From assembly GCA_965223535.1 (NCBI GenBank), contig CBDCWN010000002.1:59721-123720 (forward strand): a stretch of DNA of 64,000 nucleotides, in the 5' to 3' direction. The first letter of the stretch is position 1. Each line of letters starts with the position of its first letter. Shown here one piece after another: positions 1,979 through 50,995 of this stretch. This DNA is from Nitrospira sp. (GTDB lineage: Bacteria > Nitrospirota > Nitrospiria > Nitrospirales > Nitrospiraceae). Made by a program: the position numbers and the translations under genes. The notes beneath the pieces were generated by a model, which saw nothing but the letters and a program-made list of their open reading frames with translations, ran no database searches and was not told where the DNA came from.

Positions 1979-3337
1979 ATGACACAAACTCGTATTCCTC
2001 CTTCATTCTCGCAAGTGCGGCCTCAGTGGCTGATTGCGCTGACGCTCCTGCTTGTGCCCTGGCCGGTCGGCGCAACCGATGAAGCGGCCGAACCTCACGT
2101 GAATCTTTCCAGCCTCATTCGAGAACTGGATGCCGCCAATCCCGAGATCAAGGCAGCCCGTCAACGATGGGAAGCGGCGAAGGCCGTCGTGCCACAAGTG
2201 CAAACGCTCCCGGATCCGACGGTCAAGCTGGGCTATCAACGGATGCCGATGAGGGAGCCCCTCCAAGGGGCCATGTACGGATTCGGTCAAGAGATTCCCT
2301 TTCCCGGCAAACTCCGCCTCAAAGGGGAAGTCGCTCAACGTGAGGCCGACCGGATTGAACAGGAATATTTGGCCGTACGGCTTCGCCTCATTGCCCGGCT
2401 CAAAGAAGCGTATTTTGATTTGCACTTTATCCATGACGCGATCGAGATCGTCGAACGGAACAAAATCCTCCTGATGCAGTTCGAGAGAACAGCCAAGTCG
2501 CGATATGCCGTCGGCCAGGCTGCGCAGCAAGACGTGTTCCGTGCGCAGGTGGAGATTTCCCGAGTCCTGGATCGTCTCGCGGTGCTTGACCAGCAAAAGG
2601 AGAGCCTGCATGCCGCCATCAACCGACTCTTGAACCAGCCGCCCGCCGGCCCACTCGGAGCCCCGGAAGAAATCCAGATGACGATGTTGACGCTGCCCTT
2701 GCCGGCGCTGAGTCAACGCGCGGACGAGTTCTCGCCGATTCTGCAGGCCTCCGCCAAAGGGGTGGAACGGGGTGAGCAGGCCGTGGCCCTCGCCCGCCGG
2801 GAGTACTATCCAGATTTTGACGTGAGCGCCCTCGGCCTGCACAACGACCGCATCAATGAGCACGGCTTTCAGGTAATGCTCGGCATTCGCCTTCCCCTCT
2901 ATTACACGACCAAACAACGCCAGGCGGTGAGGCAGGCGTTGGCCGAAACCACCGAAGCGCGGGAGAGCCTCACCAACACGCGGCAGGATCTTCTGTTTCG
3001 TGTGAAGGATGATTTCGTCCAGGCCCAACGGGCCGAACGGCTCGTCGCAATTCTGCGCGACGCGATCATCCCGCAAGCCACCCTGGCGCTCCGAGCCTCC
3101 CAGTCCGGTTATGGGGTCGGCAAAGTGGATTTCCTGACGCTGCTGAATAGTTTACTCACCTTGCAGGAGAGCGAACTCGAATTGCATGGTGAAATGGTGG
3201 CGCACGAGAAGGCGCTCGCGAGATTGGAGGAAGTGACCGGTGGCCCATTGACGATCTCCGGTTCCCCTCTGCCCGGCGATGGTGCGCGGATGTCGAACGG
3301 TGCAGAGCGGATCACAGAAGGAGCACGGCACCCATGA
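1979..3337 (+). CDS. cusC: Outer-membrane efflux protein, TolC/CusC family
   Basis: Signal peptide and two OEP-like repeats (NPEIKAAR...LPDP; YYPDFDV...IRLPLY). Stop overlaps the cusB start. Confidence 0.9.
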   Translation: MTQTRIPPSFSQVRPQWLIALTLLLVPWPVGATDEAAEPHVNLSSLIRELDAANPEIKAARQRWEAAKAVVPQVQTLPDPTVKLGYQRMPMREPLQGAMYGFGQEIPFPGKLRLKGEVAQREADRIEQEYLAVRLRLIARLKEAYFDLHFIHDAIEIVERNKILLMQFERTAKSRYAVGQAAQQDVFRAQVEISRVLDRLAVLDQQKESLHAAINRLLNQPPAGPLGAPEEIQMTMLTLPLPALSQRADEFSPILQASAKGVERGEQAVALARREYYPDFDVSALGLHNDRINEHGFQVMLGIRLPLYYTTKQRQAVRQALAETTEARESLTNTRQDLLFRVKDDFVQAQRAERLVAILRDAIIPQATLALRASQSGYGVGKVDFLTLLNSLLTLQESELELHGEMVAHEKALARLEEVTGGPLTISGSPLPGDGARMSNGAERITEGARHP

Positions 3338-4563
3338 CGCGCCCAACGGTTGTCGCCGGCGTGGCGCTCGTGGTGGTGATGGGCTTTGCCGCCGCGTTCT
3401 GGATCGTGACCCGCGAACAGGGGCCACCGTCAACTGAACTGCCGAAGGAATCCAGCACTAGCATGCCTGCCATGGAGCAATCCGTCGAGAGGGCGATGTC
3501 GGCTCCAAAAGGGCATAACGAGCACGCCGCGCAGGACATGCCGGATGCCAACCTGATGACGATCGCTCCGGAACGGCTCCAAACCATCGGCGTGAAATTC
3601 CAAGAAGCGACGCGCCGCCCGCTCGACAAGATCATTCGCACTGTGGGGCGCGTTGAGATCGACGAGCGCTTGGTGGGGCGCGTGAACCTCAAATTTGAAG
3701 GATGGATCGAGGAACTGCGGGTGAGCGCGATTGGTGATCACGTTAAAACAGGGCAGATCTTGTTCACCATCTACAGCCCAGATTTGGTGGCGACCCAAGA
3801 GGAGTACTTGTTGGCGCTCCAGAGTTACCGGGAACTGGGACAGAGCGAATTCCCCGAGGTGGCCAGAGGTGCCAAGGAGCTACTGGACGCCACCCGACGT
3901 CGGCTTCAGTTGTGGGACATTCGGAAAAACCATATTCAGGATTTGGAGCGGACCGGGACGGTCTTGCGGACGCTGCCGATCCATTCGCCCGCCACGGGCA
4001 CCGTGATTCGCATGGAGGCCAGAACCGGAACCTTCGTAACGCCGGGCACGGAGCTCTACTTCATCGCCGATCTATCCCGCATCTGGGTTCAGGCCGACAT
4101 CTACGAGTATGAATTGCCCTCCATCAAGGTGGGACAAGGCGCGAGCGTGACGCTGTCCTACGATCCGAACACGAAGCTGCATGGCCATGTGGCCTTCATC
4201 TATCCAACGCTTGACCCTCAGACACGCACGGTGAAGGTGCGGTTCGAGCTGGACAACCCGGGCGAGATACTCAAGCCTGGGATGTACGCCAACGTAGAGC
4301 TGAAGATCCCGCTTGGCACCAAACTCGTCGTCCCGAGAGATGCCATTCTCGAGTCTGGGGAACGTCAACTGCTCTTCATTCACCATGGAGGCGGACAGCT
4401 GGAATGGCGGAGCGTGAAACTGGGCGCGAAGGCCGGCGACTGGCTGGAAGTGATCGAGGGCCTGAAGGCAGGGGAGCACGTCGTGACGGGGGCCAACTTC
4501 CTGATCGATTCCGAAAGTCAACTGAAGGCCGCGGTCGGCGGCATGGCGGGCATGACACATTGA
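3334..4563 (+). CDS. cusB: Heavy-metal RND membrane fusion protein (CusB family)
   Basis: Motifs FEGWIEEL, IYSPDLVATQEEY and LKPGMYA. Met/His-rich N- and C-termini. Confidence 0.92.
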   Translation: MTRPTVVAGVALVVVMGFAAAFWIVTREQGPPSTELPKESSTSMPAMEQSVERAMSAPKGHNEHAAQDMPDANLMTIAPERLQTIGVKFQEATRRPLDKIIRTVGRVEIDERLVGRVNLKFEGWIEELRVSAIGDHVKTGQILFTIYSPDLVATQEEYLLALQSYRELGQSEFPEVARGAKELLDATRRRLQLWDIRKNHIQDLERTGTVLRTLPIHSPATGTVIRMEARTGTFVTPGTELYFIADLSRIWVQADIYEYELPSIKVGQGASVTLSYDPNTKLHGHVAFIYPTLDPQTRTVKVRFELDNPGEILKPGMYANVELKIPLGTKLVVPRDAILESGERQLLFIHHGGGQLEWRSVKLGAKAGDWLEVIEGLKAGEHVVTGANFLIDSESQLKAAVGGMAGMTH

Positions 4564-4636: not shown

Positions 4637-7600
4637 ATGGTTGAACGCATCATCGAATTCAGCGCGCGGAACCGATTCATTGTGTTCCTCCTGATCTTCG
4701 GTCTGGCGGCAGCCGGACTCTGGGCCATGAAGAACACGCCGGTGGATGCGATTCCAGATCTCTCTGACACGCAGGTCATCATCTACACCAAATGGCCGGG
4801 CCGCTCTCCTGATCTCGTCGAAGATCAGATCACCTATCCGATCGTCACGGCCTTGCTGTCCGCGCCAAACGTTACGGTCGTACGCGGCTTCTCCGACTTC
4901 GGTTTCTCGTATGTCTATGTCCTTTTCAAGGATGGGACGGACATCTATTGGGGTAGAAGCCGCGTCCTCGAATATATGAACCAGCTCGCGGGCCGGCTGC
5001 CTGACGGCGTGACGCCGCAGTTGGGACCGGATGCCACGTCGGTGGGCTGGGTGTTCGAATATGCCCTGGTCGATGAAACTGGGCAGCACGATCTGGCCGA
5101 GTTGCGTTCGTTCCAAGATTGGTATCTGCGGTACTGGCTGTTAAGCGTGGACGGCGTGGCCGAGGTGGCCAGCGTGGGCGGCTTCGTGCGCCAATATCAG
5201 ATCAACCTTGATCCAACCAAAGTTCTCGCCTACAAACTCTCGCTTCCGCACATTATCGAGACCATCCGACAGAGCAACGAAGATGTCGGAGGGCGTGTCG
5301 TGGAATTTTCCGGCATCGAATACATGATTCGCGGCCGCGGCTATATCAAGTCGGTCGGCGATATCGAAAAGATCGCGATCGGCGTCAATCAGAACGGAAC
5401 GCCCATTCTCCTGCGGGATGTTGCGACGGTCCGGCTCGGTCCCGACATGCGACGCGGGCTGGTCGAACTGGACGGGAAGGGCGAGGTGGTCGGCGGGATC
5501 ATTATCATGCGGTTCGGGGAGAATGCCCTCGCGGTCATCGACCGGATCAAAGCGAAGCTCACAGAACTGGAGCCCTCGATGCCCAAGGGGGTCAAAGCTG
5601 TCACGACATATGACCGGAGCGACCTCATTCAGGAATCGATTGCCACGGCCACGGAGAATCTCGTCGAAGAACTGGTCGTCGTCAGTGTGTTGATCGTCGG
5701 CTTTCTGCTGCACCTCCGCTCTGCGTTGCTGCCGATTGTGACCTTGCCGCTGGCCGTGCTGATTTCATTCATCCCGATGTATCTCATGGGGATCGGCCTG
5801 AACATCATGTCCATCGGCGGGATCATCGTGGCGATCGGCGACATGGTGGACGCGGCGATCATCATGGTGGACAACGCGCACAAACGGCTGGAGGAGTGGG
5901 ACCTCGGCGGACGACTTGGGGACCGGACACAGGTCCTGATCGATTCGGCGAAGGAGGTCGGCCCCGCGATTTTTGCCTCGCTGCTGGTGATCGCCATTGC
6001 CTTCATGCCGGTCTTTACGCTGGAGGGACAGGAAGGTCGGCTGTTCAAGCCACTCGCCTGGACGAAGAACCTGGCCATCGCTATGAGCGCGCTCCTGGCG
6101 ATTACGTTGATTCCAGCCCTGCTGGCCTTTCTCATTCGGGGCCGGATTATCACTGAACAGCGTCATCCCGTGAGCCGTCTCTTGCAACGCCTCTATGCGC
6201 CGGTCCTGCGCCTGGCGTTACAGTATCGGGTGGCGGTCGTCATGCTGGCGATCGGACTGACGCTCACGATCATTCCCGCGTTCCAGCGCATGGGGACGGA
6301 ATTTATGCCGCCCCTGTACGAAGGCACGATCCTGTACATGCCGACCACGCTCCCCGGCATCTCGGTCACGCAGGCCTCGATGCTGCTCCAGCAGATGGAC
6401 CGCAAACTGAAATCGTTTCCGGAAGTGGAATGGGTGTTCGGCAAGGCCGGCCGGGCCGATACCTCCACCGATCCGGCCCCCTTCAGCATGATCGAAACCG
6501 TCATTGAGCTGAAACCGAAGGAGCAATGGAGGCCTGGGATCACCTATGAGGCTTTGATTGATGAGATGGATCAGGCCCTCCAATTTCCCGGCGTGACCAA
6601 TTCCTGGACGATGCCCATCAAGGCCCGCACCGATATGCTGACGACCGGGATCCGGACGCCAGTGGGCATCAAGATCTTCGGGCCGGACCTCAAGCAGATT
6701 GAGGCGATCGGCAAACACCTCGAAATGTCGTTGAGGGATGTCCCTGGAACGAGGAGCGTCTACGCGGAGCGGGTGTCGGGCGGCTACTTCCTCGATTTCG
6801 AGATCAACCGGGATGAGATCGCCCGTTATGGGCTGACGGTCAGGGACGTCGGCCAGATCATCGAGACGGCGATCGGCGGCGAGAACATCGACACCACGAT
6901 CGAAGGGCGGGAACGCTACCCCATCAACGTGCGGTATCTCCGCGAACTGCGGGATGATCCAGAAAAGCTGCGTCGCGTGCTCGTCGTCACGCCGTCCGGC
7001 GTGCAGGTGCCCATCGCACAGCTGGCCACGCTTCGATTTGTGCAAGGGCCGCCGATGATCCGCGATGAAGATGGGATGTTGGCCGGGTACGTATTCGTTG
7101 ACATGACCGGCCGGGACGTCGGGAGTTATGTGGAGGATCTCAAACAGGTGGCGCGGGACACCATCACCTTGCCGCCCGGCTACACCATCGCCTGGTCCGG
7201 CCAGTACGAGTTCATGCAGCGCGTCAGGGAGCGGCTCACGATCTTCATCCCACTAACGATTGCGATCATTTTCGTCTTGTTCTATTTCACGTTCCGTTCT
7301 GTGGCCAAAACCCTCATGGTCATGCTGGGGGTGCCGCTCTCTCTGGTCGGAGGCCTCTGGTACATGGTCTGGCTCGGCTACAACATGAGCATTGCCGTGT
7401 GGGTGGGGATCATTGCCCTGGCCGGTGTCGCGGCCGAAACCAGCGCGGTGATGCTGGCCTATCTTGATGAAGCCTGTAAGCGCCGCCGGGCGGCTGGCAC
7501 CCTGCGAACGCTGGAGGAGCTCATCGAGACGGTCCACCAGGGTGCCGTCGAGCGCATCCGCCCGATGGCGATGGCCGGGTCGGCCAATATTCTGGGCCTG

Positions 7601-7771
7601 ATTCCGGTCATGTGGGCGACGGGGACGGGGGCGGATGTGATGAAACGGTTGGCCGCGCCGATGGTCGGCGGCGTGCTCTCCGCCATGCTGCTCACGCTGT
7701 TGGTCATTCCCGCGATTTATACGTTCTGGCGGTGGCATTCCGAGGTGAAAACGCGGGGAACCGGTGAATGA
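4637..7771 (+). CDS. cusA: Cu(I)/Ag(I) RND efflux permease CusA
   Basis: 1044 aa with PVDAIPDLSDTQVII and YWGRSRVLEY. Three Met are in positions matching the CusA metal-binding triad (LYMP, FSMIET, RTDMLTTG). Confidence 0.95.
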   Translation: MVERIIEFSARNRFIVFLLIFGLAAAGLWAMKNTPVDAIPDLSDTQVIIYTKWPGRSPDLVEDQITYPIVTALLSAPNVTVVRGFSDFGFSYVYVLFKDGTDIYWGRSRVLEYMNQLAGRLPDGVTPQLGPDATSVGWVFEYALVDETGQHDLAELRSFQDWYLRYWLLSVDGVAEVASVGGFVRQYQINLDPTKVLAYKLSLPHIIETIRQSNEDVGGRVVEFSGIEYMIRGRGYIKSVGDIEKIAIGVNQNGTPILLRDVATVRLGPDMRRGLVELDGKGEVVGGIIIMRFGENALAVIDRIKAKLTELEPSMPKGVKAVTTYDRSDLIQESIATATENLVEELVVVSVLIVGFLLHLRSALLPIVTLPLAVLISFIPMYLMGIGLNIMSIGGIIVAIGDMVDAAIIMVDNAHKRLEEWDLGGRLGDRTQVLIDSAKEVGPAIFASLLVIAIAFMPVFTLEGQEGRLFKPLAWTKNLAIAMSALLAITLIPALLAFLIRGRIITEQRHPVSRLLQRLYAPVLRLALQYRVAVVMLAIGLTLTIIPAFQRMGTEFMPPLYEGTILYMPTTLPGISVTQASMLLQQMDRKLKSFPEVEWVFGKAGRADTSTDPAPFSMIETVIELKPKEQWRPGITYEALIDEMDQALQFPGVTNSWTMPIKARTDMLTTGIRTPVGIKIFGPDLKQIEAIGKHLEMSLRDVPGTRSVYAERVSGGYFLDFEINRDEIARYGLTVRDVGQIIETAIGGENIDTTIEGRERYPINVRYLRELRDDPEKLRRVLVVTPSGVQVPIAQLATLRFVQGPPMIRDEDGMLAGYVFVDMTGRDVGSYVEDLKQVARDTITLPPGYTIAWSGQYEFMQRVRERLTIFIPLTIAIIFVLFYFTFRSVAKTLMVMLGVPLSLVGGLWYMVWLGYNMSIAVWVGIIALAGVAAETSAVMLAYLDEACKRRRAAGTLRTLEELIETVHQGAVERIRPMAMAGSANILGLIPVMWATGTGADVMKRLAAPMVGGVLSAMLLTLLVIPAIYTFWRWHSEVKTRGTGE

Positions 7772-7880
7772 TGCGAACGAGGAGACGAACGGTCTTATGG
7801 CGACACCGTGATCGTGCAGGGTGTGTCACTCGATGAACAGACAAACAGGCCGTACCATGTGCCGCAATTGACGGAGGGAG

Positions 7881-9329
7881 GTGAGAGTGATGCTAGAGCT
7901 CGTCGACGTGGGGGAACGAAGGCTCGACGCCTACCAAGGCGTGGCACCTGATTCGATCTTGGATACTCTCCGAGAGCTGTCTCACGATCTGCGCGGTGTG
8001 CGTGTCCTGCATGTGAATGCGACTCCCTATGGAGGAGGCGTGTCGGAGTTATTGCGCTCCGTCATTCCCTTGCTCAACGACCTCGGACTGGTGGCGGACT
8101 GGAAAATCATCCGGGGCGATGAGGCCTTCTTCCAGGCCACCAAGGCGCTGCACAACGCACTCCAGGGCGCCACGACTGGCCTCACAGGGCCGCAGCGGGA
8201 AACGTATCTCGCCAGCGCCAACGAGAACGCGAAGTTGCTGGAGGAGGACTATGATGTTGTGGTGATCCATGATCCCCAACCCGCCGCCATTCCTTCCCTG
8301 CGCGGGAAGGGAACGGCTCGCTGGATTTGGCGCTGCCACATCGACACCTCGCAACCAAACCCGGACGCGCTCGCCCTACTGCTCCCCTACGTGGCGGACT
8401 ATGACGCCGCGGTCTTCACCATGGCGGAGTTCGTTCCGCCCAGGTTCCCCGTTGAGCGCATCAGAATTATTCCTCCGGCCATCGATGCGTTGAGTCCAAA
8501 GAATCTGCCGTTAGAGGAAGGGCTGGCCAGACAGATCCTCGGGTGGATCGGGATTCACCCCGACGGCCCGCTGATCACCCAGGTGTCCCGCTTCGATCCC
8601 TGGAAGGACCCCCTGGGTGTCATCGCAGCCTACCGGCTGGCCCGCGAAGCCGTGCCGGACCTCCGCCTGGCGCTGGTGGGTTCGATGGCGCTCGATGATC
8701 CGGAGGGCTGGGATGTGTATCGCCGAATCAAAGCAGAAGCCAGCCAAGATCCAGGCATTCACGTCTTCACGAACTTAACAGGCGTGGGCAACATTGAAGT
8801 CAACGCGTTTCAGCGACTGTCGAGCGTGGTCCTTCAAAAGTCGATTCGTGAGGGGTTCGGCCTCGTCGTCTCCGAAGCGCTATGGAAGGGGACTCCGGTC
8901 GTCGCCGGGAAAGCCGGTGGCATTCCCCTGCAGATGGCTGATGGCGTCGGCGGCTTCCTGGTCGATGGTGTGGAAGCCTGTGCGCATGCGGTGATTCGAC
9001 TGCTGACACATCCTCAAGAGGCCAAGCAACTCGGAACAGCCGGTCGTGAACGGGTGCGCGAACACTTCCTGCTCCCGCGCTTGCTCCTTGATGAACTTGC
9101 CCTGATGCTGGATCTGCTCCGCGCACGACCAATCCGCCGATCGCCGGAGCATGCGGAAGTCGATCGCGATCCGGTGTGTGGGATGGCCATTGGGCCTGAA
9201 TCGTCCGTGACAGCCTCCCATGGCGGGCAGCGGTATCTGTTCTGCTCGGAAGGCTGCCGCGTTCGATTTCTCAAGTCGCCGAAACGATTTGTGGGGCACG
9301 AGCGAGGGCCAGGTGGCTTGTGGGGGTAA
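7881..9329 (+). CDS. treT: GT4 trehalose synthase TreT-like protein with C-terminal YHS domain
   Basis: Motifs [38 protein letters not shown] and [16 protein letters not shown]-terminal DPVCGM...YLFCSEGC. Confidence 0.88.
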
Positions 9330-9483
9330 GCCAAGATGAGGGAATCGTCTGCGGTGTTGGGCACAGGTAGACCCAGGCGTCAGCTTTACCAGTGTTGGAG
9401 TGGTCGCCCAATGTGTTTTCGAAAGGCCACGGTCAGAGCCACCGGTGTCCACTTTGAAATGTCTTGAAGGGGGATTATTGACC

Positions 9484-9839
9484 GTGCACTCGCAAACAGA
9501 ACCGAACAACGTCAACACTTCGGTCCACACCGATGTGACACGCATGCTCACCGAGAACCGATGGGCTTTCATTCGCTTTCTGAGCGGTCGTCTGGGGAGC
9601 CCAGATATTGCTGAGGAGGTTTTGCAAGAGTTTTACGTGCGAGCCCTCAGCAAATCGTCTGCGATCAAGAAGCGAGAGAGTATCCCGCAATGGCTGCATC
9701 GCGTCCTCAGGAGCACGCTGGCAGACTTCTATCGTGCCAAGGCGGCGAGACGGAACGTCGAGAAAGAATATTCGCACGTACAACCTGGCGTTGTGTTGGA
9801 CCACGTCGGTAAGGATCCGGAGGCCATGTGCGCCTGTTT
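9484..9839 (+). pseudogene. CorE-like (CxC-motif) ECF sigma factor truncated by a Tn3-family element
   Basis: Sigma region 2 (RFLSGRLGSPDIAEEVLQE...WLHRVLRSTLADFYR) then MCACL, cut by the IR at 9840. Region 4 is absent. The start codon is uncertain. Confidence 0.75.
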
Positions 9840-12800
9840 GGGGTAACGGGAGGGAAGCTGCGATGGCACGCAACAGCCCTCCACTTCAGCGACGCAGTAT
9901 AGTTGCGTCCTGGTGACTGGAGTCACTAGGCTGCCCTCAAAAATGACGGGCGTGCCAGATCGAGCGTGAACTGGCCATATGGATTGATGTGCCCATGGAA
10001 CAGCGGCGTCAGGGCCCGATGATCCTCGGCGCTGAGCCGTCCCCAGAGTCCTTCCTGTTCAATCGTGCGCTCGACCAGAATCGTGTTGATCAGCATCAAG
10101 CAGTTTTGCAGTAACTGCAACGAGAGCGTCACCACTTCTTGTTGTTCACGGCTGTTGGTTGCCAACTCGCCTTGGCGACCGTAGCAGATAAAGTCATTCG
10201 TCGCATTCCAGTTTTCCACGACATTCAGCCCTTCGTGCACTTCGCGCTGGGTCTCGCGGGAGGACAGGTACTGGCACAGAAACAGGGTCTTGGCGGCCTT
10301 GCCCAGCTCGGTCAACGCTTTGTAGGTCGGGTGCGTCCGGTTATACGAGTTATAGCGCTTCAGAATCGCGTCCGCGCTGGCCGTGCCCTGCTTGAGGGCC
10401 ACGGTGGCCTTCACCATCTCATCGTATTGCTGTTCGATCCATTCAAACCGGATGGGCCGAGCAAAGGTGCCGGCGAGATGGGGATATTCCGCAGCCGTCC
10501 CAGGGCCGGGCAGATACAGGCGCTCATATTTGATGCGCTTGAGCCGCGGCATGAGGCGCACGGTGCTGAGCAGGTCGCAAAACGCAAAGGCGACCTCTGA
10601 TTGACCGTGACTGTCCACGAAATTCTTCTCGACCCGCATATCCGTGTCGTGGCGCACGAGGCCTTCGATCATGGCCGCCACCTCGGAGTTGGAAAAACTC
10701 TTCAGCTGCGAGTAAATGCAGACGGCGTTGGTCTCCACGTGCCAATAGACCATGACCCCGTAGCCGTTGTACCGGGCTCGCCACTCGGTCATGGGGTTCT
10801 GCTTCCAACTCTCAAATTTGGTGGCATCCGATGCACAACTGCTGGCGCCCTGACCCCAGAGCTGTGGGTTCCGCAACGCCAGGAGTCGATTGACTACAGC
10901 GGCATTGGCGTTGCGCAGCGCCTCCGGCGAGAAGTACATCTTGCGCACATACAGGAGCTCGTCGTAGCTGTAGTGGTGGTTGGCGTTGGCCACCCGCCGG
11001 ATGCCCGTGTTCGTCCCTTCGGCAAACAGATCCAGGATCAATAAGGGACGCAATGCCTCGCGGGAACGCACTTCCTTGGTACCGGAATGCGTAAAGAAGC
11101 GCGTGAAGTCGACCAGCCGATCGGCTTCCACGAACACATCGAGCAAGTCCAAAATTCCGTACTGCGTGGTGATCGCCTCTTTGATGAGGCCAAGACTGTG
11201 CGCTTCAGGCTGTCGCTCCAGCTTGGTGAGCGCCCATAAGCCACGCTCCTCATTCTTATTGGGATGGAAGATGCGCACATGATTCAGTTGTGGCATGGTG
11301 CGGTTGAAGGCGGTTAAGCTCTCCACCAGGCGTGTCTTGAGCGTGCGCACGAACGTCTGTGCATCCACCGGCTTGCCCAACGCTTCGTAGTGGAGCCGGC
11401 GGCGCGGCTCATCACCCCAGTCACGCGGCATATCCTCGCTTGGATTGCGAAAGGCGTAGGATCCTTCGACCCAAATCTCCTTGCATTTCAGCGCCCGCTG
11501 AAGTTTCTGGAGCACGCAGAGTTCGTAATACCGCCGATGGATCTTCCGTTCACCTGCGATCGCGTCACACACCTTCTCTTCCCAGGCTGGGGTGACAACC
11601 CCCTCGAGCGGGATTGTTTCCTCCGCCGGGAAGTATCGATGGGAGCTCTGCACATGTCGTTGAATGGGAGCCAGCGCATCGAGGACGGGCTGAAAGCGAT
11701 TGTCGCTCCGAAAGGTGAGGGTCTCCAGGAGGAGGGGCAGGATGCGCCGGTAGTGACGCGCAAACTTACGCTGCATGATGGCTTGTCGAAGCAGACGCAG
11801 ATTGGGTCCGGTCAGATCAAACTCGGCCACCAGGTGCTGAAACGTTTCCTCCTTCACGCGTGGGAAGAGCACCTCACGAACAATCCCATCCGGAGACTCA
11901 ATGACGGCCTTGGCGACTGTCGACAAAATCTGCAGCTTGCCATCCACGCGTTGGAGATCGGCCAACCACTCGCGGTGAAGCTGCTTCTCTGAGCGCACGT
12001 CGAGGCGGTGGATGAGTTCAATGGCCATGCGGGTCACGTCATCGGTCACTTCCAGGCCTCGCATGTGGAGCACAGACCCCATCAGGGCATACCGGATCTC
12101 GTCGCTGTGCTCGCGCATGTCGCTGGCCTTCTCGTTCATCGCCCGCCGTCGCAAGGTCTGGAGCACTTTCCACGGGACGCGCTCAAACGGATCCGGCGAC
12201 AGCCCCACGGCGCGAATCGCCCGCAGCTTCTCCACCTCGGCTTCAAATTGACCGACCCCTGGTTTCCCGGGATCCGCCTTGATCCGTTCAAACTCGGAGA
12301 TGACGCGTCCCTCAGGCACCACTAAGAGAGCGTCGATGCGGAGGCGCACCTCGGGAGGAATGGCGGCCGCGATGTGCCGTTGGGTATCCTGAAAAAACCC
12401 GCTCAGTGCACTCTGGACGACGCGTTGGAGTTCGCCTTCGGCAGGTAATTCCACCCGGAAAGACCGCAGCCGGTGGCAGGCGCACGCGAACAGGCCGTCC
12501 AGTGTGTGGACCTCATACGCGGCTTTTTGCTGCAACCATTGTTCGAGGTCGTCCTTGTCGAAGGCGTCGCAGGGACGCCATCCCGTATAACGTCGGATCA
12601 ATGACAGATGGTGATCCCGCGTGCGACTCTCCCAGGCATAGGGCTCAGAGCAATCCCACAACAGACCAAGCTGACTGGCGACAAACGTGCGGACTTCCGG
12701 CGGGACCTCCTCCAGCCCGTCGGGGACGTGGCCTAAGTAGTCGAGGGCTTTGAGCAGGAGCGCCATCCCACACCGATTCACATCGGTGCGACATCCGAAA

Positions 12801-13088
12801 ACCAACTCGAGATCGGCAGGAGTCAAGAGAAAGAATTCGACGAGCTCCTCATGGGTATAGGACGCTCGAAAGTGAGGATAGCCCTCGCCCATCGCCGCAC
12901 CAGCCTCCGCATCAACACGGCTTCACGTAGGCAGAACGGGCAATTTTAGGGCGTCATGAGCGGAATAGCTAGATTCAACCCTCCGTCGTGGGAGGAGAGG
13001 GCCAGGGGCAATACGAAATGTGGACGTGTGTGTGAGGCTGATTCGAGCTCGCTATTGCGTGCCATCGCAGCTTCCCTCCCGTTACCCC
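9840..13088 (-). mobile_element. Resolvase-less Tn3-family element A, copy 1 (3249 bp)
   Basis: 38-bp IRs GGGGTAACGGGAGGGAAGCTGCGATGGCACGCAA(C/T)AGC at 9840-9877 and 13051-13088. Only tnpA lies inside. Confidence 0.93.
9926..12892 (-). CDS. tnpA: Tn3-family transposase (element A)
   Basis: 988 aa with DDE motifs CASDATKF, FVDSHGQSE and GLNVVE, and C-terminal HINPYG. Confidence 0.95.
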   Translation of the reverse strand: MGEGYPHFRASYTHEELVEFFLLTPADLELVFGCRTDVNRCGMALLLKALDYLGHVPDGLEEVPPEVRTFVASQLGLLWDCSEPYAWESRTRDHHLSLIRRYTGWRPCDAFDKDDLEQWLQQKAAYEVHTLDGLFACACHRLRSFRVELPAEGELQRVVQSALSGFFQDTQRHIAAAIPPEVRLRIDALLVVPEGRVISEFERIKADPGKPGVGQFEAEVEKLRAIRAVGLSPDPFERVPWKVLQTLRRRAMNEKASDMREHSDEIRYALMGSVLHMRGLEVTDDVTRMAIELIHRLDVRSEKQLHREWLADLQRVDGKLQILSTVAKAVIESPDGIVREVLFPRVKEETFQHLVAEFDLTGPNLRLLRQAIMQRKFARHYRRILPLLLETLTFRSDNRFQPVLDALAPIQRHVQSSHRYFPAEETIPLEGVVTPAWEEKVCDAIAGERKIHRRYYELCVLQKLQRALKCKEIWVEGSYAFRNPSEDMPRDWGDEPRRRLHYEALGKPVDAQTFVRTLKTRLVESLTAFNRTMPQLNHVRIFHPNKNEERGLWALTKLERQPEAHSLGLIKEAITTQYGILDLLDVFVEADRLVDFTRFFTHSGTKEVRSREALRPLLILDLFAEGTNTGIRRVANANHHYSYDELLYVRKMYFSPEALRNANAAVVNRLLALRNPQLWGQGASSCASDATKFESWKQNPMTEWRARYNGYGVMVYWHVETNAVCIYSQLKSFSNSEVAAMIEGLVRHDTDMRVEKNFVDSHGQSEVAFAFCDLLSTVRLMPRLKRIKYERLYLPGPGTAAEYPHLAGTFARPIRFEWIEQQYDEMVKATVALKQGTASADAILKRYNSYNRTHPTYKALTELGKAAKTLFLCQYLSSRETQREVHEGLNVVENWNATNDFICYGRQGELATNSREQQEVVTLSLQLLQNCLMLINTILVERTIEQEGLWGRLSAEDHRALTPLFHGHINPYGQFTLDLARPSFLRAA

Positions 13089-13262
13089 CATGAGAAGCGC
13101 TCCGGCAACCGTGAGGTCTTGTCAGAGGGGAGGCGATCCCAGAAGAGAGGCCGTGGGGTCGGGCCGAGGGAGGGACATTGACTGAAGCGAATTCTGGAGA
13201 GGGGCGAAGAACAAGGGGCGGTGGATACGCAACCGCCCCAGAACATTGCTCATGTCCCTTGT

Positions 13263-13742
13263 CTACTCGACGGATACCACGATCCGACGCGATCGGTCCT
13301 TGGCTTCGGGCGTCCAGGGTATTCGAACAGCCAGCACTCCATGCTTGCAGGCAGCCTCGGTCTTCGAGACATCGACGCCGTCCGGCAAGGCCACACTTCG
13401 ATGAAACGCGGTGTAGCGACGGCCACGGCCTTCCCCGTTGCCATCACGCCATTCACGCTCGTCCTCATAACTGACATGGAGCATACCAGGCCGGACGGTG
13501 ACATTGAGGTGTTTCGGGTCCAGTCCGGGGATGTCGGCACGGAGAAGCACGTGCTCGTCCGTCTCGTCCATCTCGATCCCAGAGCCGCCCCCGGCAAACC
13601 GAGACCATCCCGTCTCCAAGGGCGACATGAGAAACCGATCAAACAGCTGATTGATGTCATCGCGTAACGACAGAACCTCCTGCGTGTCGACCGGTTTCCG
13701 TTTCCACGGAATCATGTCTTTGAGTTTGCTCATGAGCTCCAT
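13263..13742 (-). CDS. Small heat shock protein (Hsp20/alpha-crystallin)
   Basis: Motifs LRADIPG, FHRSVALP and ACKHGVLAVRIP. SD AAGGAGG precedes the ATG at 13742. Confidence 0.88.
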   Translation of the reverse strand: MELMSKLKDMIPWKRKPVDTQEVLSLRDDINQLFDRFLMSPLETGWSRFAGGGSGIEMDETDEHVLLRADIPGLDPKHLNVTVRPGMLHVSYEDEREWRDGNGEGRGRRYTAFHRSVALPDGVDVSKTEAACKHGVLAVRIPWTPEAKDRSRRIVVSVE

Positions 13743-13978
13743 GGCGTCTCCTCCTTTCTTCCAGTTGGTACAGTGGACATTCCCTTCACCGATTTCGATA
13801 AGGCTCCTCACGCGCCGGTCAAGTCCTCGTATGCGACGTTCCACTGGTTCCTCTAGGGTAGACCTCAGGTCACCAGATCTGTCGTGGAAATCGAGGGTGA
13901 TTTCTTGTCACCCTTGGGAATACAGCATGAGCGATTGAGTTTTGGCCGTCCCCACATGAACCTCTCGACACCGGATAT

Positions 13979-14110
13979 TCACCATTTTGTCGATTTCCGG
14001 TCCGTCCGCCACGTCATCCACGCGCTCACCATGAACGCCAGGATGATCAGGCCGAAGACGACCAAGCCCATCACTTCAGTGCGCGGTAACGCGGCAAGTA
14101 ATTCTCTCAT
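13979..14110 (-). CDS. Putative 43-aa single-TM microprotein (MRELLAALPRTEVMGLVVFGLIILAFMVSAWMTWRTDRKSTKW)
   Basis: Translated by hand. GGAG SD, hydrophobic stretch and basic tail. Confidence 0.4.
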   Translation of the reverse strand: MRELLAALPRTEVMGLVVFGLIILAFMVSAWMTWRTDRKSTKW

Positions 14111-14128
14111 CGCGAGGTCTCCCGCTCT

Positions 14129-14398
14129 TCACCGACCTTTTCTGCCACCCGTGCGCATGATGTCGTTGAGGAGGCGATCCCGATGACGCATGATCATCGC
14201 CCGCCGCCTGGGCCGATCGAGCGACCACCAGCGCAGAGGGCGACTAAAGCGAACAGTCGGCGGCGGGATATTTCGTAAGACGGCTGGGTGCTGAAAGTCA
14301 TAGCCTGCAGCCTGTTGTCTGCCAACCGCAGTTGCGGGCTGAACGATGGCGGCATCGAACGTCCCTGCTAGAACTGTACTTGCACTTCTCGGTTCCAT
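14129..14398 (-). CDS. Hypothetical protein (89 aa)
   Basis: ORF with GGAG SD before the ATG at 14398, co-oriented with neighbours. No recognised motif. Confidence 0.35.
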   Translation of the reverse strand: MEPRSASTVLAGTFDAAIVQPATAVGRQQAAGYDFQHPAVLRNIPPPTVRFSRPLRWWSLDRPRRRAMIMRHRDRLLNDIMRTGGRKGR

Positions 14399-14678
14399 GG
14401 CGAATCTCCATCCTCTTGGCACTTCCTCTCTCCAATTGTGGAAGCACAACGCTATCCCGCTACTCAGTCGTGACACTTCACCACCCACAAGAGACCATTC
14501 ACGCGTCTCTCGTTCTTGCGATGGGTGATGGTTCGTGACTGATTAGGGAAGTCATCATGCAGTGTCATCATCCGTCCACGCCTGACGACTCCGCGTGACT
14601 GACAACGCAGGTAATTCCGTTCGAACACAAGTCAAGACCGACAGGACGCTGATTCAGGAGATGGACTGGGCCAATCTC

Positions 14679-14706
14679 TTGACCAAGACAAAACGAGAAT
14701 TATGAT
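14679..14706 (+). promoter_or_regulatory. Sigma70-like promoter upstream of hsp20
   Basis: TTGACC, 16-bp spacer, TATGAT, about 95 bp upstream of the ATG at 14802. Confidence 0.4.
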
Positions 14707-14801
14707 ACTCGTGAACGCAAGAGCACCGCGTATGAAGGCATACCTTACATCCATACGGGGTGGCCCTGCGCATGTGGTCACACCACGAAAGGAGGTTCAT
14801 C

Positions 14802-15251
14802 ATGAATCTGGTACGCTGGGATCCATTTCGGGAGTTGGAAGATATGAGCCATCGGCTCAACCGACTATTAGCCGGAAAAGACGTGAAGAGCCACGACGGA
14901 ACGGACACCATAATAACGGCCGATTGGGTCCCTCCCGTCGACATCAGCGAGACCGATCAGGAATTTCAGGTCAAGGCGGAGCTTCCAGGGATCAAGAAGC
15001 AGGACATCAAGGTCACGTTGGAGGGCGGCATCCTCACGTTGCAAGGTGAGCGACCGGAGGAGCAAGAGGACAAGGGTCGTCGAATTCATCGCGTGGAACG
15101 GTCCTATGGACGGTTCGTCAGAAGTTTTACGCTTCCCGATGTGGTCGACGCAACTAAGGTCAATGCGGAATTCAAAGATGGGGTGCTGACGTTGCGCCTG
15201 CACAAATCACCAGCGGCTGTCCCCAAGGCCATTGAGGTGAAGGTCGCGTAA
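14802..15251 (+). CDS. Small heat shock protein (Hsp20)
   Basis: MNLVRWDPFRELE...DWVPPVDISET...RVERSYGRFVRSFTLP...FKDGVLTLRL. SD AAGGAGG. Confidence 0.95.
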   Translation: MNLVRWDPFRELEDMSHRLNRLLAGKDVKSHDGTDTIITADWVPPVDISETDQEFQVKAELPGIKKQDIKVTLEGGILTLQGERPEEQEDKGRRIHRVERSYGRFVRSFTLPDVVDATKVNAEFKDGVLTLRLHKSPAAVPKAIEVKVA

Positions 15252-15279
15252 CTACCCTCTGCCAACCCTGTCATCGAGG

Positions 15280-15312
15280 AGCAGCCCGTTGTTCGAGAAT
15301 GGACGGGCTGTT
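15280..15312. terminator. GC-rich hairpin between convergent genes
   Basis: AGCAGCCCGT / ACGGGCTGTT stem. No clear U-tract. Confidence 0.3.
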
Positions 15313-15442
15313 CCCCCCTCTCATCGACTCTGGCGACTCAGTCTGCTCGCCACTGTTCTTGTCGGAGTCGAGGTGGTCGTTCTGATGACGGTTGGATTCT
15401 AAGTGGAGCAGCAGCCAAGCTGGTTGCTCATGGCGAGAGTCA

Positions 15443-15610
15443 TCAAGAGGCGTCTCGCCGGGGCTGTCGTGCATCGGGTCCGGCGAACGGATTGCTCGAC
15501 CGTGAGTGCGTGTCGTGATTGCCGAATAGATATATAACCAGGTACGCCATGGCAGTCGCCATGGCTACGACAATCCCTCCCATCGTGAGCGTGGCGATCA
15601 GTTCAGCCAT
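15443..15610 (-). CDS. 55-aa single-TM microprotein
   Basis: MAELIATLTMGGIVVAMATAMAYLVIYLFG... with SD AAGGAG. Confidence 0.55.
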   Translation of the reverse strand: MAELIATLTMGGIVVAMATAMAYLVIYLFGNHDTHSRSSNPFAGPDARQPRRDAS

Positions 15611-16269
15611 ATCTCGTTGCTCCTTGATGGTTGATACAGATCCGCGGAGATGATCTCGACTCCTTAGTTTAGGGTCAACCCCCTGCGTGCGCGTGCGGCG
15701 CATTTGGAGAATCGCCTCCGACAAGCGATCGCGAAGAGGCATGCTCACGGGCGATCTCATTACAGTATCCGTGACAGTTCGCTTTACCATGCGGTGCCGT
15801 AAGGGGAGGTAATAACAGGAAAAAGAAAATCAAGTTGGATAGGAGACGAGGAGGTATCCGGGACGGTGAACAGCACGATCCTCCTCAATCGTCGGCTGAG
15901 AGGCTTATAGAATTGGAGAGAGACTCATGTCCATCGTGTGGTGCACCAGTCGATGCACCCAGCGTAAGGACTGGCACGGATTGTCAAGAATGTCTCAAGC
16001 ACTCAGTGCCTTGTACCTTTTCTCATCTCCCCCTCTTGACTCATCTTATTTTGGAATTACTCGTATTATCAGAATTGACAGACTGGACTGGATGGACGTT
16101 GGTGAAGGGCCCACTGTCTAGCCACCTGTCATAGCGGTGTGCACCTCGGCCCTTCACGCAGTCCTCCCGCTCCAGCGTAACGATTTCTAACAAACTGCTG
16201 ACCCGTGTGGAAGGGTCTCGCCATGACTTTGGCGAGCCCACGCTCGGTCATGGAAGGGAGGTGAACACG

Positions 16270-16446
16270 ATGATGGACATGAGCTCCATGATTGATGCGG
16301 GCCTGGCGCTCGGTGGGGCGATGGCGGTAGTGCTGATGGGAATGGCGATGGTGTCTTCGGACTCCACCACCGTGTCCATGTCCTCCGACGAAATTAGACG
16401 TCAATCCGACGACACCCAGTATCCGCCTCTTCAGGCTGCGGCCTAG
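16270..16446 (+). CDS. 58-aa single-TM microprotein (paralog of 56437-56613)
   Basis: SD context GGAGGTGAACACG-ATGATGGA. Same length and pattern as the ORF at 56437-56613. Confidence 0.7.
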   Translation: MMDMSSMIDAGLALGGAMAVVLMGMAMVSSDSTTVSMSSDEIRRQSDDTQYPPLQAAA

Positions 16447-16488
16447 TTGAGGGCGGTGCGGTTGCCGTACTGAATCCGGGAGGAAACG

Positions 16489-16578
16489 ATGATGACGTAT
16501 CACTGGCAAATGTGGAACGCACAAGTCCTGGGAAGGGCTGATTATTTCTCGTGGCCACATCAGCGGTGGTCGCGATAA
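16489..16578 (+). CDS. Putative 29-aa Trp-rich microprotein (MMTYHWQMWNAQVLGRADYFSWPHQRWSR)
   Basis: Translated by hand. GGAGG SD 5 nt upstream; lies in a tandem gene string. Confidence 0.4.
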   Translation: MMTYHWQMWNAQVLGRADYFSWPHQRWSR

Positions 16579-16646
16579 AGGAACAGGGACATCTTCACGG
16601 GATGTCCCTGGTGCGAGTTGAAGACAGAGGAAAGGAGGGACCGACG

Positions 16647-17321
16647 ATGCCAATCACATTCAGAATGGTAACCATACTCGTGATGCTCTGCCTGGTCCTG
16701 GGATTGGTGGCCACGCCGGGCATCGCCACAGAAGGTGTGTCAACGGACGCCACACTCCCGCGTGCCTTTCAGAACGCTCAGTTCGGGATGACGCTGTCTG
16801 AATTCACAGCGGTCGTCCCTGAGGCGAAGCCAGTGTCCCTCGGAGGGCGTGATCACGCTGACCGGACGGTGGTGGTGCCATCACAAGAACGGCCCCTCCA
16901 CCGCATTGAATATCGTTTCTCCGATCGGCTCCGGGAATTCATCCTTTATTATGTGTATGCCGATGTCCCTGGTGGGTATGCTGGACTGCTCACACAATTA
17001 CGAGAGTCGTATGGGAAGCCCATAAAACAGAATCTGTACGAATATTATACGAAACCCGAAGCCTACTCAGAAAAGAAGACGATCTGGAAGGATCGTGCCA
17101 CGATGGCCACTTTGACGGAGATTCGTAAACTGAATGGTGACCAACGCGAACTGAGCGTGACGATCACCGATCTCACGGGTCAACCGGCTTCGGGGGAAGG
17201 GCAAGCGCGTCACGCACAAGAACGGAGTATCCCGATTCCAGTGCCGGAGGACCGGACTTCGAACGAACAGACGGCGGTGCCGGACCGAGCTGGGGCACAG
17301 ATCAAGCAGGCACGTGGGTGA
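16647..17321 (+). CDS. Exported hypothetical protein (224 aa)
   Basis: SD AAGGAGG and a signal peptide (MPITFRMVTILVMLCLVLGLVATPGIA). Confidence 0.7.
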   Translation: MPITFRMVTILVMLCLVLGLVATPGIATEGVSTDATLPRAFQNAQFGMTLSEFTAVVPEAKPVSLGGRDHADRTVVVPSQERPLHRIEYRFSDRLREFILYYVYADVPGGYAGLLTQLRESYGKPIKQNLYEYYTKPEAYSEKKTIWKDRATMATLTEIRKLNGDQRELSVTITDLTGQPASGEGQARHAQERSIPIPVPEDRTSNEQTAVPDRAGAQIKQARG

Positions 17322-17405
17322 GGGAGTGTGGGGAGAGAAGGACCCTGATTTGGTGAACTCATTGAAGACTACTCGTGGGGTGAGTGCGAAAGGAGGTGGT
17401 CGGCC

Positions 17406-17489
17406 ATGAAAGTGCTCTCTTGGATTCGGGCGCTGGTGGCGACCTGGCTCATCGTGGCGCCGATCATGGTCGCGATCCGAATCCTGTGA
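17406..17489 (+). CDS. Putative 27-aa hydrophobic microprotein (MKVLSWIRALVATWLIVAPIMVAIRIL)
   Basis: Translated by hand. GGAGGT SD. Confidence 0.45.
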   Translation: MKVLSWIRALVATWLIVAPIMVAIRIL

Positions 17490-17578
17490 TCGAGTTATCA
17501 CAGAGCAGATCGTTGAATCCTATCGAAGAATGCGTGAACACGAGCCGATGACGCATAGGAAGGGAGGGGGAAGAAGCA

Positions 17579-17749
17579 ATGAAACATCTACCATGGTTCG
17601 TAGCAGCGGTCGGGGGCTGGCTCATCGCCGTGCCGTTTCTGCTCAACGAGGCCGGGACTGACATGGCAACACAGAATGGTGTCGGGGTGGGTCTGGTGAT
17701 GGTGGTAAGCGCACTCGTGTGGGGATTCTCGAAATGGGTCTGGCAGTGA
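17579..17749 (+). CDS. 56-aa two-TM protein, SPW-repeat-like
   Basis: MKHLPWFVAAVGGWLIAVPFLL...NGVGVGLVMVVSALVWG. SD GGAGG. Confidence 0.55.
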   Translation: MKHLPWFVAAVGGWLIAVPFLLNEAGTDMATQNGVGVGLVMVVSALVWGFSKWVWQ

Positions 17750-18091
17750 TGTATGTACCCAACATACGAGCTAGAAGGGGCGTGGCATGATGGTAGCCAA
17801 GCCCCTCACTAATTGGTGTCGTCACAGGGAATCACAATCCCGACTACGCAGTAGGCAGTGGATGATGCTCGCACGGCGTGTTCGTCCTATCAACACCTGC
17901 CGTGTGGTCGGCCTCCCCATCTCACACAGGACTAGGGGTTTTGCCAGTCCTGATCTGCGGGAGGATCGCGATACTCGATCGATGGTCGTGCTCATTCCAA
18001 ATGAGACGAAGCGGCCGGCATCCTCGGACGGATGCCGGTTCGATCTCTCGATGTGCTCAATGTGTATGTACTGCGTGAAAGGAGGACTCAC

Positions 18092-19045
18092 ATGACGCGT
18101 CTGACTCTCTTAACATGGGCTCTTGCCGTGTCTTTCTTGAGCGTGGGAGTGGTCTTGCCCACGGGTGTCTGTGCCGCCGATGCCCAACAACCTGCAAAAA
18201 AAGCCGAGCCTCAAACCAAGGCCCAGGCATCTCAGAAAGGCGAGACTCAATCCAAAGCCTCCCAATCGGTGCAGCCAGAGGTTGACAAACAAACGGCGGA
18301 TGCCGCCACCGAAAAACGAAAGAAACTACTAGCTGAGGCGACGGCCGCCCTCGATGAATCCAAGAAGGCGCTCAAGGCGTTGGACGAGAACAAACCGGAC
18401 CGCGCGTTGGCGGCCCTGGCCGCGGTGACGGGGAAACTCGAAGTCATCGTGGCGCGGGAACCTGCCCTGGCGTTGGCCCCTGTGGATGTCCAGGTTGTGA
18501 CGGAGGACGTACTGGCCAGTCCGGAAACCATCAAGACGACCATCGAGAAAGCCAAGGAGTATCTCGACGATGGAGACATTCAAAAGGCCCGTCCGTTGGT
18601 GGCGTCGCTGTCCAGCGAAATTCAATATCGGATCATCAATATTCCGCTGGCCACCTATCCGGATGCGATCAAAGCCATTACGCCCTTAATTGACGACGGG
18701 AAGATCAAGGAGGCGAAGACCGCGTTGCAGGCAGCCCTCAATACTCTGGTGGTGACAACCGAAGTGGTCCAGCTACCTAAGCTGCGAACAGAACAGTTAC
18801 TGAAACATGCACAGGAACTTGCGGAAAAGCAGGATCGGAGCAGCACCGAAAATACGGAATTGGCTGATATTCTTCACGCCGCGCGCAAGCAACTGGAACG
18901 AGGCGAGGTGCTGGGGTATGGCAATAAGGAGGCCTATCAACCTCTCTATGAGCAGCTCGATGAGTTGGAGAAAAAATCCTCCGGCGGCAAAAGTGGCAAG
19001 GGGTGGTTCGACAAGATCAAGAAACAGCTTTCGGAGCTGTTCTAA
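18092..19045 (+). CDS. yfdX: YfdX-family periplasmic protein
   Basis: Signal peptide and helical pattern ALKALDENKPDRALAALAAVTGKLE...IPLATYPDAIK...ALQAALNTLV. SD AAGGAGG. Confidence 0.75.
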   Translation: MTRLTLLTWALAVSFLSVGVVLPTGVCAADAQQPAKKAEPQTKAQASQKGETQSKASQSVQPEVDKQTADAATEKRKKLLAEATAALDESKKALKALDENKPDRALAALAAVTGKLEVIVAREPALALAPVDVQVVTEDVLASPETIKTTIEKAKEYLDDGDIQKARPLVASLSSEIQYRIINIPLATYPDAIKAITPLIDDGKIKEAKTALQAALNTLVVTTEVVQLPKLRTEQLLKHAQELAEKQDRSSTENTELADILHAARKQLERGEVLGYGNKEAYQPLYEQLDELEKKSSGGKSGKGWFDKIKKQLSELF

Positions 19046-19441
19046 TTCTACCGTGGTTCGGGTTCTATCCCGCTTCGGCGGAACACCTCAGTACGGTTCA
19101 GCATGAGCCAGGAGGGTGTCAAGACGTCGAGACGGATATTTATACTGCGGAGTCGAAGCCTGAAGCGGGCATAATCTTGGACACGCGGGGATGATGGGAA
19201 GCCACCTCGCCGCTGAACGGCGCGTTAGGGTCAATCTCTTCGGCCAAGAGCGACAAGAGGTGTGCCAGTCCTCTAACCAGTGACTAGGTCGTTGTTTGCA
19301 ACGGGCAAGCTCAGGATGACGAGCTGAACCAGTTGCGTCGGAACTTTATCCCAGCGTGTAGCGCGAACATGAGAATCGGTGCATGTTCAATCGGGCGATC
19401 TCGGGCACGGTCTCGCGAGGCACCACGGAGGAACAGGAACG

Positions 19442-21268: not shown

Positions 21269-21355
21269 CCGAAGGAGGTTCACCGGTATCTTCGCTATCG
21301 TACGCGTGTCAACACTCGCTGATATCATCGACTGAACAGCCGGAACCGAAGGGCT

Positions 21356-22288: not shown

Positions 22289-22300
22289 GGAGGTTCTGTC

Positions 22301-22618
22301 ATGGAGTATGAAATTCTGACAGGGAACATCATCGGCGATGAGGGCGTGCTCACGACGGAGGAGTTGGCGCGAGCCTGCCGGGCCGAGGTGTCATGGATTG
22401 CTGAATTGATCGACGTCGGGATCTTAGCGCAAGAAGGAGAAGACCCGTCACGGTGGCGATTCTGCGCGGGGGACCTCACCTGTGCTCGCCGAGCCGCCCG
22501 CCTGCAACAGGCGTTTGCAGTGAACACGGACGCGCTGGCGGTCATGCTTGATCTGCTGACCGAGATCGAGCGCCTGCGTGATCGTCTGAAGCGGGCGGGA
22601 TTGGATTCGGAGGAGTGA
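22301..22618 (+). CDS. cbpM: Chaperone modulator CbpM (MerR-like fold)
   Basis: LTTEELARACR...WIAELIDVGIL...ARLQQAFAVN...MLDLLTEIERLR, 12 bp after cbpA. Confidence 0.88.
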   Translation: MEYEILTGNIIGDEGVLTTEELARACRAEVSWIAELIDVGILAQEGEDPSRWRFCAGDLTCARRAARLQQAFAVNTDALAVMLDLLTEIERLRDRLKRAGLDSEE

Positions 22619-36473: not shown

Positions 36474-36501
36474 CTGGGGGTGCGATGCCGAAGACGACGG
36501 C

Positions 36502-45329: not shown

Positions 45330-45585
45330 TCATGATGATGTCATCCTCGCGCAAGCGCCGGGGCCTCCAGCTGGGCGCCTATCTGCCAATGGAGACCTCA
45401 TCGACGCCTGGCCGTTCGCTGCCACTTTTGCTCCTTCCGCTCAGCAAGACTTGACTTCCCGTACGACAGAATTATCACACATCCTAGTTGGCGGAATCGT
45501 CAGGCTCCCATTGGATGATGGCACCGCACGACGATCTCACCGCCAGTAATAGTTTGCTCAATCCACCAACTTCAAGGAGGGACGT

Positions 45586-50992: not shown

Positions 50993-50995
50993 GAC

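Follow-up and report, generated by a model that had tools for sequence, protein, structure and literature searches.

A trehalose synthase TreT with a C-terminal YHS domain on a plasmid-like contig of Nitrospira sp., a fusion recurrent in metal-resistance clusters

The metal ligands named for the YHS/TRASH domain are one Asp and three Cys (Linder, 2015; PMC4626032). The sole studied enzyme with this domain at its C-terminal end is the class III adenylyl cyclase of Mycobacterium phlei, which is activated by 1–10 µM Cu2+ and only when the YHS domain is present (PMC4626032). The YHS domain of toluene-4-monooxygenase was crystallized without metal and has no known role, and in ribosomal protein L24e the TRASH domain binds its metal in a structural role (PMC4626032). 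A literature search combining TreT, trehalose or glycosyltransferase with YHS, TRASH or copper returned no paper on a fusion of the trehalose synthase TreT to a YHS domain, and the paper on the Streptomyces mirabilis plasmid that we discuss below mentions neither trehalose nor YHS; TreT plus YHS is visible as a combination in precomputed domain tables. The parts are known, and their combination is widespread yet uncharacterised.

Here we describe one such fusion gene, treT-YHS, from a window of 64,000 nt (the whole stretch of DNA analysed) of Nitrospira sp. The window is part of a 170-kb plasmid-like contig, C2, which carries parA and an integrase gene, in a genome of 4.21 Mb assembled in three contigs.

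The treT-YHS gene and its product

The reading frame at 7881–9329 (+ strand) is open throughout and translates into 482 aa, with the longest ORF starting at GTG 7881. A Shine-Dalgarno sequence, GGAGGGAGG, was read at 7873–7881 (+), with its last nucleotide 8 nt before ATG 7890, and homologues of the product start at the Met located three codons after the GTG. Because the Shine-Dalgarno sequence overlaps GTG 7881 and the homologues begin at that Met, the true start is likely ATG 7890, which would give a CDS at 7890–9329 (+) and a product of 479 aa.

Pfam searches identified TreT_GT1 (PF21269) at residues 44–186 (E 2.4e-51; 173.7 bits, with a cut-off of 27), over the whole length of the profile (1–144), Glycos_transf_1 at residues 226–391 (E 7e-22), and YHS (PF04945) at residues 430–473 (E 9.4e-12; 45.2 bits against a gathering cut-off of 30.3). 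The YHS domain scored 49.8 bits in a scan of the whole genome, in which TreT was the sole YHS protein on contig C2. The GT-B catalytic body, composed of the TreT_GT1 N-domain and the Glycos_transf_1 C-domain, is thus encoded at 8010–9053 (+) according to Pfam, PDB matches, the alignment and a structural model; it is separated from the YHS/TRASH domain (9168–9299, +; Pfam and alignment) by a poorly conserved linker of lower model confidence (residues 416–429; 9126–9167, +). These Pfam hits and the matches to solved structures bear out what the earlier note had read in the sequence, a complete GT4 TreT body followed by a C-terminal YHS domain.

Residue conservation was examined in an alignment of 96 fused homologues. 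The EX7E glutamates E324 and E332, which align with the EX7E motif of the TreTs in the PDB (E326 in Pyrococcus horikoshii), and other core residues were invariant. Within the YHS tail, D430, C433, F454, C459 and F463 were also invariant and C455 was kept in at least 90% of the sequences, so that the set of one Asp and three Cys proposed as YHS/TRASH ligands is present (D430, C433, C455, C459). An AlphaFold model built on these 96 homologues had a mean pLDDT of 90.2 and a pTM of 0.90, with pLDDT values of 85–92 for the YHS domain and around 64 for the linker.

The best match among solved structures was the TreT from P. horikoshii (2x6q; phmmer E 3e-107, residues 9–402), followed by that from Thermoproteus uzoniensis (6zj4; E 1e-103), with an identity to the solved TreTs of 42–50% end to end. 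Foldseek comparisons of the modelled body with solved TreTs gave an E of 1e-41 and TM scores of 0.89–0.96 (0.95 to the T. uzoniensis TreT). By all sequence and fold tests except one NCBIfam equivalog, the body belongs to the TreT family. This equivalog, NF041139 (TreT_Thcocales), gave 390 bits, under its cut-off of 775, and we found no assayed enzyme from the bacterial clade of TreT-YHS; both points could be taken to mean that TreT-YHS is a TreT-like GT4 forming some other glucoside instead of trehalose. We consider this very improbable, in view of the identity and fold similarity to two solved TreTs, of the far lower scores of the next-best families, and of the restriction of NF041139 to Thermococcales.

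Surroundings of treT-YHS on the plasmid-like contig

Profile searches identified three genes for a tripartite efflux system upstream of treT-YHS, all in the + strand: cusC, for the outer-membrane factor (1979–3337); cusB, for a CusB/CzcB-type adaptor (3334–4563); and cusA, for a CusA/CzcA-family RND pump (4637–7771). The product of cusA scored 1173 bits with TIGR00914 (cut-off, 701), its TM4 motif reads AIGDMVDAAIIMVDN, and it has Met at all three expected motifs. Cus-type RND pumps are characterized by A-I/V-G, and not D-F-G, in TM4, together with a methionine triad (E. coli numbering). We therefore take the TM4 motif and the three Met to place the cusA product as a Cus-type HME-RND pump (monovalent Cu/Ag); a Czc-type pump was ruled out by the TM4 motif. 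The position of treT-YHS directly after a Cus-type pump gene, as the earlier note had claimed, was hence confirmed. The gap from the end of cusA to ATG 7890 is 118 nt. It is plausible that cusA and treT-YHS are on one transcript, because this gap holds no terminator-like or sigma-70-like site.

Downstream of treT-YHS there is a fragment of an ECF sigma factor gene (9484–9846, +; Pfam and sequence), in whose product region 2 is followed by the motif C116-A-C118. An IS inverted repeat that starts at 9840 truncates the gene at codon 119, and the C-terminal Cys-rich domain and region 4.2 are absent. A CxC motif between sigma-2 and sigma-4.2 is a hallmark of the metal-sensing CorE-like ECF44 factors, located at C120/C122 in CorE and C108/C110 in CorE2; the fragment appears like these factors by its CxC, with class membership read from the remaining N-terminal part only. 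At the other side of the cus genes, profile searches and cysteine spacing (C81, C116, C125) identified a MerR-family regulator (79–519, −). Its spacing is MerR/ZntR/PbrR-like (Hg/Zn-type), unlike that of CueR, and it scored under all NCBIfam equivalog cut-offs. The proposal that glgX could supply carbohydrate to the enzyme fared poorly: glgX (36424–38583) lies 27 kb away, within another IS-bounded segment, and does not recur beside TreT genes, and we rejected it as an unsupported functional partner.

The right edge of the cus-treT block is a Tn3-family IS-like unit (9840–13088, −; 3,249 bp) with 38-bp inverted repeats and tnpA, which has an identical inverted twin at 42081–45329. The tnpA of these twin units codes for 988 aa and a resolvase is absent; the units bracket a 29-kb segment of stress and efflux genes. 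Their outer 5-bp flanks are unequal (TGTTT vs. TCATG), which rules out a plain composite-transposon insertion. The inner flank CATGA (13089–13093) reads as the reverse complement of TCATG, the outer flank at 45330–45334, and these flanks therefore suggest an inversion or an intramolecular replicative transposition. A third, distinct Tn3-family unit, with a 1034-aa tnpA product and 38-bp inverted repeats at 23408–23445 and 26637–26674, occupies 23408–26674 and is followed by a DDE_3 transposase gene (27292–27813). A megablast comparison of positions 7000–10000 against plasmids yielded no match.

The window is also rich in genes related to protein damage, at 13263–22618 and 46357–59600, which recall transmissible heat/stress-tolerance loci. 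These include genes for three sHSPs (13263–13844, 14760–15251 and 57031–57468), a YfdX protein (18032–19045), an extra copy of FtsH located 10 kb from treT-YHS (19379–21268), a DnaJ/CbpA-like protein with a MerR_2 partner (21356–22618), and three DegP-like proteases (46357–47886, 54786–56270 and 58362–59600). Additionally, the gene at 48080–49732 codes for a 550-aa fusion of unusual architecture, comprising a CopD-like membrane domain, a c-type cytochrome and an AhpC/TSA thioredoxin-fold domain.

Distribution and gene context of the fusion

In a collection of 5.8 billion proteins, PF04945 was present on 117 of the 120 best homologues, with identities of 64–94%, those of the closest relatives being 94, 82 and 80%. 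These 120 sequences come from many phyla, and in every one of them at least the beginning of the domain is retained; together with the query, 120 of 121 contain the full D..C...C...C motif, and the exception ends just past DPVCG. Such conservation of the junction and the motif rules out a local chance fusion or a frameshift artefact. The named sources of the fusion include Planctomycetota, Nitrospira bockiana, Binatia, Thermoleophilia, Gaiellaceae, Deltaproteobacteria and Fraserbacteria, and the fused loci come from Myxococcota, Acidobacteriota, Actinomycetota and Gemmatimonadota.

The fusion is, nonetheless, a minority form of TreT, accounting for around 3% of the family clusters. Two similarity-biased scans showed fused genes at 17 of 160 loci; the fused form made up about five of the best 150 representatives at 50% identity, and was found in four of the 118 TreT-bearing genomes from a sample of 301 Actinomycetota, the phylum of locus L010 (the 118 include an unpublished genome, G287, with an unfused match; without it the count is 4/117, with no change). 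Only two of the 371 genomes of the host's family, those of the host and of G552, contain the fused form, and no TreT extends beyond about residue 425 in any of 200 further genomes from the host's phylum. On the host chromosome there are two TreT paralogues without the fusion, with 52 and 42% identity to the plasmid copy; the first of these comes after a GalT-like gene, in a locus that is 81–86% identical, at the protein level, to loci from Nitrospira MAGs. Since the fused form is lacking in the 200 further genomes from the phylum and occurs in only one of the family's other 370, the plasmid treT-YHS is, by its distribution, a horizontally acquired xenologue. In a FastTree phylogeny of the catalytic body, 34 of 42 fused rows grouped in one main clade and there were eight changes of YHS state, at least two of them forced by supported branches; according to this tree, TreT has gained or lost its YHS domain on more than one occasion.

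We compared the neighbourhoods of fused and unfused loci, with genes called by codon-position GC score. A Cu-type P-ATPase gene was found within 6 kb of 4/17 fused and 3/143 unfused loci (naive Fisher p 0.003, which does not consider phylogenetic independence; with only two well-supported contrasts, a sign test is powerless). Overall, about half of the nearly 20 fused loci with readable flanks are in metal-resistance clusters, with genes for Cu P-type ATPases, Cus RND pumps, multicopper oxidase and CopB, cupredoxins or merA. Among the outcomes that the earlier note had set against its idea was a widespread fusion without a link to metal loci. The fusion is widespread, but it is found repeatedly inside metal-resistance clusters; the metal link that the note proposed is thus supported by gene context.

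A Myxococcota locus (L009) has a gene for a CopA with two HMA domains upstream of the fusion; immediately after the fusion come genes for an OEP, an adaptor and a Cus-type RND pump that shares 49% identity with the CusA of the window. In a Jiangellaceae locus (L010) the neighbours are DUF305 and a divergent P-ATPase gene (7017–9749) coding for an N-terminal cupredoxin and a C-terminal YHS domain; in L120 they are two P-ATPases, a cupredoxin, an FtsH fragment (12606–15155) and a GalT-like gene (11515–12525). There is a P-ATPase gene 33 nt downstream in L125, CusC- and CusB-like genes at a contig edge in L011, and in L122 a gene for an ABC-transporter ATPase that itself ends in YHS (1206–2051). 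The only other fused copy among the 371 family genomes, that of G552, adjoins genes for a P-ATPase, a multicopper oxidase and CopB. A copper cluster is also present on the host chromosome (C3:1981356–1992961), encoding a CopA-type ATPase whose N-terminal part carries two YHS domains, together with a multicopper oxidase and CopB; these last two products are 72 and 63% identical, respectively, to those encoded beside the G552 treT-YHS. On a metagenome contig (L153), a gene for a CusA 61% identical to that of the window is directly upstream of a TreT gene cut by the contig end.

The fused gene was present in three plasmid records from PLSDB, all of them Streptomyces megaplasmids. In plasmid pI of S. 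mirabilis P16B-1 (L198, 3935–10461), a strain originating from a metal-polluted site, genes for a SHOCT protein, a heavy-metal P-ATPase and FtsH precede treT-YHS, with a second ATPase gene and DUF302 nearby. In plasmid pFRL4 of Streptomyces sp. F2 (L199), treT-YHS is surrounded by genes for an HMA protein, CbtAB, HtpX, PspA, ArsR and merA, as well as by a GalT gene (10504–11592) and genes for a CsoR-like regulator, FtsH and a P-ATPase. The record from Streptomyces sp. FR1 was counted as metal context solely from its identity and score, equal to those of pFRL4. A gene for FtsH recurrently accompanies a heavy-metal P-type ATPase gene and treT-YHS on mobile elements (L198, L199, L120).

Around ten fused loci have other neighbours, such as genes for WS/DGAT (in Amycolatopsis tucumanensis), a sigma-54 activator, BNR proteins, CofD or MetH; there were no metal genes within 6 kb at L013, L023, L032, L033, L036, L118, L121, L123 and L124. 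We also found split forms: a Nitrospira MAG contains, in one string, a 62-aa YHS gene, a GalT-like gene, an unfused TreT gene and a PEP synthase gene, and another contig (L166) contains a P-ATPase gene with a C-terminal YHS, then DUF302 and then TreT.

The metabolic gene that recurs beside TreT is not glgX but one for a GalT-like nucleotidyltransferase, of the galactose-1-phosphate uridylyltransferase family. It directly adjoins fused or unfused TreT genes in several lineages (the host chromosome, C3:2444691–2446984; L046, 8712–13725; and the L120 and pFRL4 loci above), and is absent beside the plasmid copy. Its product likely supplies NDP-glucose to TreT.

A candidate metal-responsive enzyme and its comparison with known systems

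We propose that TreT-YHS is a trehalose synthase with a built-in metal-sensing YHS domain that would tune trehalose synthesis, carried on mobile resistance islands, a reading to which we assign a probability of roughly 0.5. The enzyme is predicted to make trehalose from NDP-glucose and glucose, with release of NDP, and its YHS/TRASH domain to bind a soft metal ion through Asp430, Cys433, Cys455 and Cys459. As an in-built sensor, the domain would tune the enzyme, most likely by activation; a rise in cytoplasmic copper, or a similar thiophilic metal, could then lead at once to the chemical chaperone trehalose, with no need for new transcription. The gene would move as accessory cargo of mobile islands for resistance to metals and protein damage. 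We infer metal binding, the metal involved and the effect on activity by analogy, and copper control of the enzyme is suggested by the gene context together with the example of the Cu-activated M. phlei cyclase. A bolder version, which we regard as tentative, is that TreT-YHS is a direct, transcription-independent switch for Cu (or Ag/Cd), spread horizontally as standard cargo of resistance islands in at least six phyla, and that it forms with FtsH and the P-type ATPase an unrecognised module of metal efflux and protein protection.

Several observations count against a sensor. About half of the fused loci lack metal genes within 6 kb, the YHS domain of toluene-4-monooxygenase was crystallized free of metal and has no known regulatory role, the L24e TRASH is structural (PMC4626032), and the cysteines of the nearby MerR regulator are of the Hg/Zn type, not the CueR type. 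All but the last of these would agree with a YHS domain that is a constitutive structural Zn module, not involved in sensing, which stabilises or oligomerises the enzyme or docks a partner, such as the GalT-like enzyme, with the islands carrying the gene as general stress cargo; that the domain was modelled as a compact and confident unit would fit as well. However, most TreTs, including all those solved, function without YHS, the neighbours are specifically genes of the Cu/Ag type, and the repeated gain or loss of the domain better fits an optional regulatory add-on, for which reasons we find a purely structural role unlikely, if conceivable.

Lower still we place two other roles for the tail. 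Its three conserved cysteines could be a thiol redox switch, by which oxidative or disulfide stress, also caused by copper, would alter trehalose synthesis, and the abundance of protein-damage genes in the plasmid (for sHSPs, FtsH, the DnaJ-like protein, DegP and the AhpC/TSA fusion) is in line with this; but the Asp-Pro-Val-Cys-Gly-Met signature and the Asp ligand are typical of metal sites, and the context is dominated by metal transporters, not by thiol-redox enzymes, which makes a redox switch improbable. The YHS domain might otherwise be a metal buffer or chaperone, with an abundant cytosolic enzyme sequestering Cu(I) or passing it to the efflux ATPases or the Cus system, irrespective of catalysis. 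YHS domains do occur at the termini of Cu-ATPases, including the two of the host chromosomal CopA, and in L010 and L166 ATPases with a C-terminal YHS are encoded next to TreT genes. Nevertheless, one site per 480-residue enzyme would be a costly buffer when small dedicated YHS/HMA proteins exist, and the strict retention of the catalytic residues indicates that the enzyme function is under selection; we thus give buffering little credence.

Should the metal-sensing reading be true, TreT-YHS would add a protective-solute arm to metal resistance, usually described in terms of efflux, oxidation and sequestration, and would be only the second class of enzyme with a demonstrable job for its YHS domain. 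The hypothesis is cheap to test because there are cultured carriers, namely S. mirabilis P16B-1 (pI), Streptomyces sp. F2 (pFRL4) and Amycolatopsis tucumanensis, and the enzyme assay is standard. A metal-gated TreT might also be of use as a biosensor or in the controllable production of trehalose.

TreT-YHS shares with the solved TreTs from P. horikoshii and T. uzoniensis (2x6q, 2xmp, 6zj4, 6zn1) the GT-B fold, the TreT_GT1 N-domain and the EX7E motif. These proteins, however, have 400–416 residues, end where the linker of TreT-YHS begins, lack a YHS domain and are encoded in archaeal chromosomes, whereas treT-YHS is on a bacterial metal-resistance plasmid. P1B-type copper ATPases share the Pfam YHS domain, with two copies in the host CopA and one in each of the ATPases beside TreT in L010 and L166; in them, the domain is on a membrane transporter and its metal binding is putative (PMC4626032), while in TreT-YHS it is on a soluble enzyme of sugar metabolism. 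The M. phlei adenylyl cyclase is built in the same order as TreT-YHS, from a catalytic domain through a short linker to a YHS domain at the C-terminal end, and has the same signature of an Asp and three Cys, although the linker is of 8 residues in the cyclase and 14 in TreT-YHS, and the output is a cAMP signal in the first and would be a protective sugar in the second. Activation by metal was shown for the cyclase, whereas TreT-YHS is known here from its sequence.
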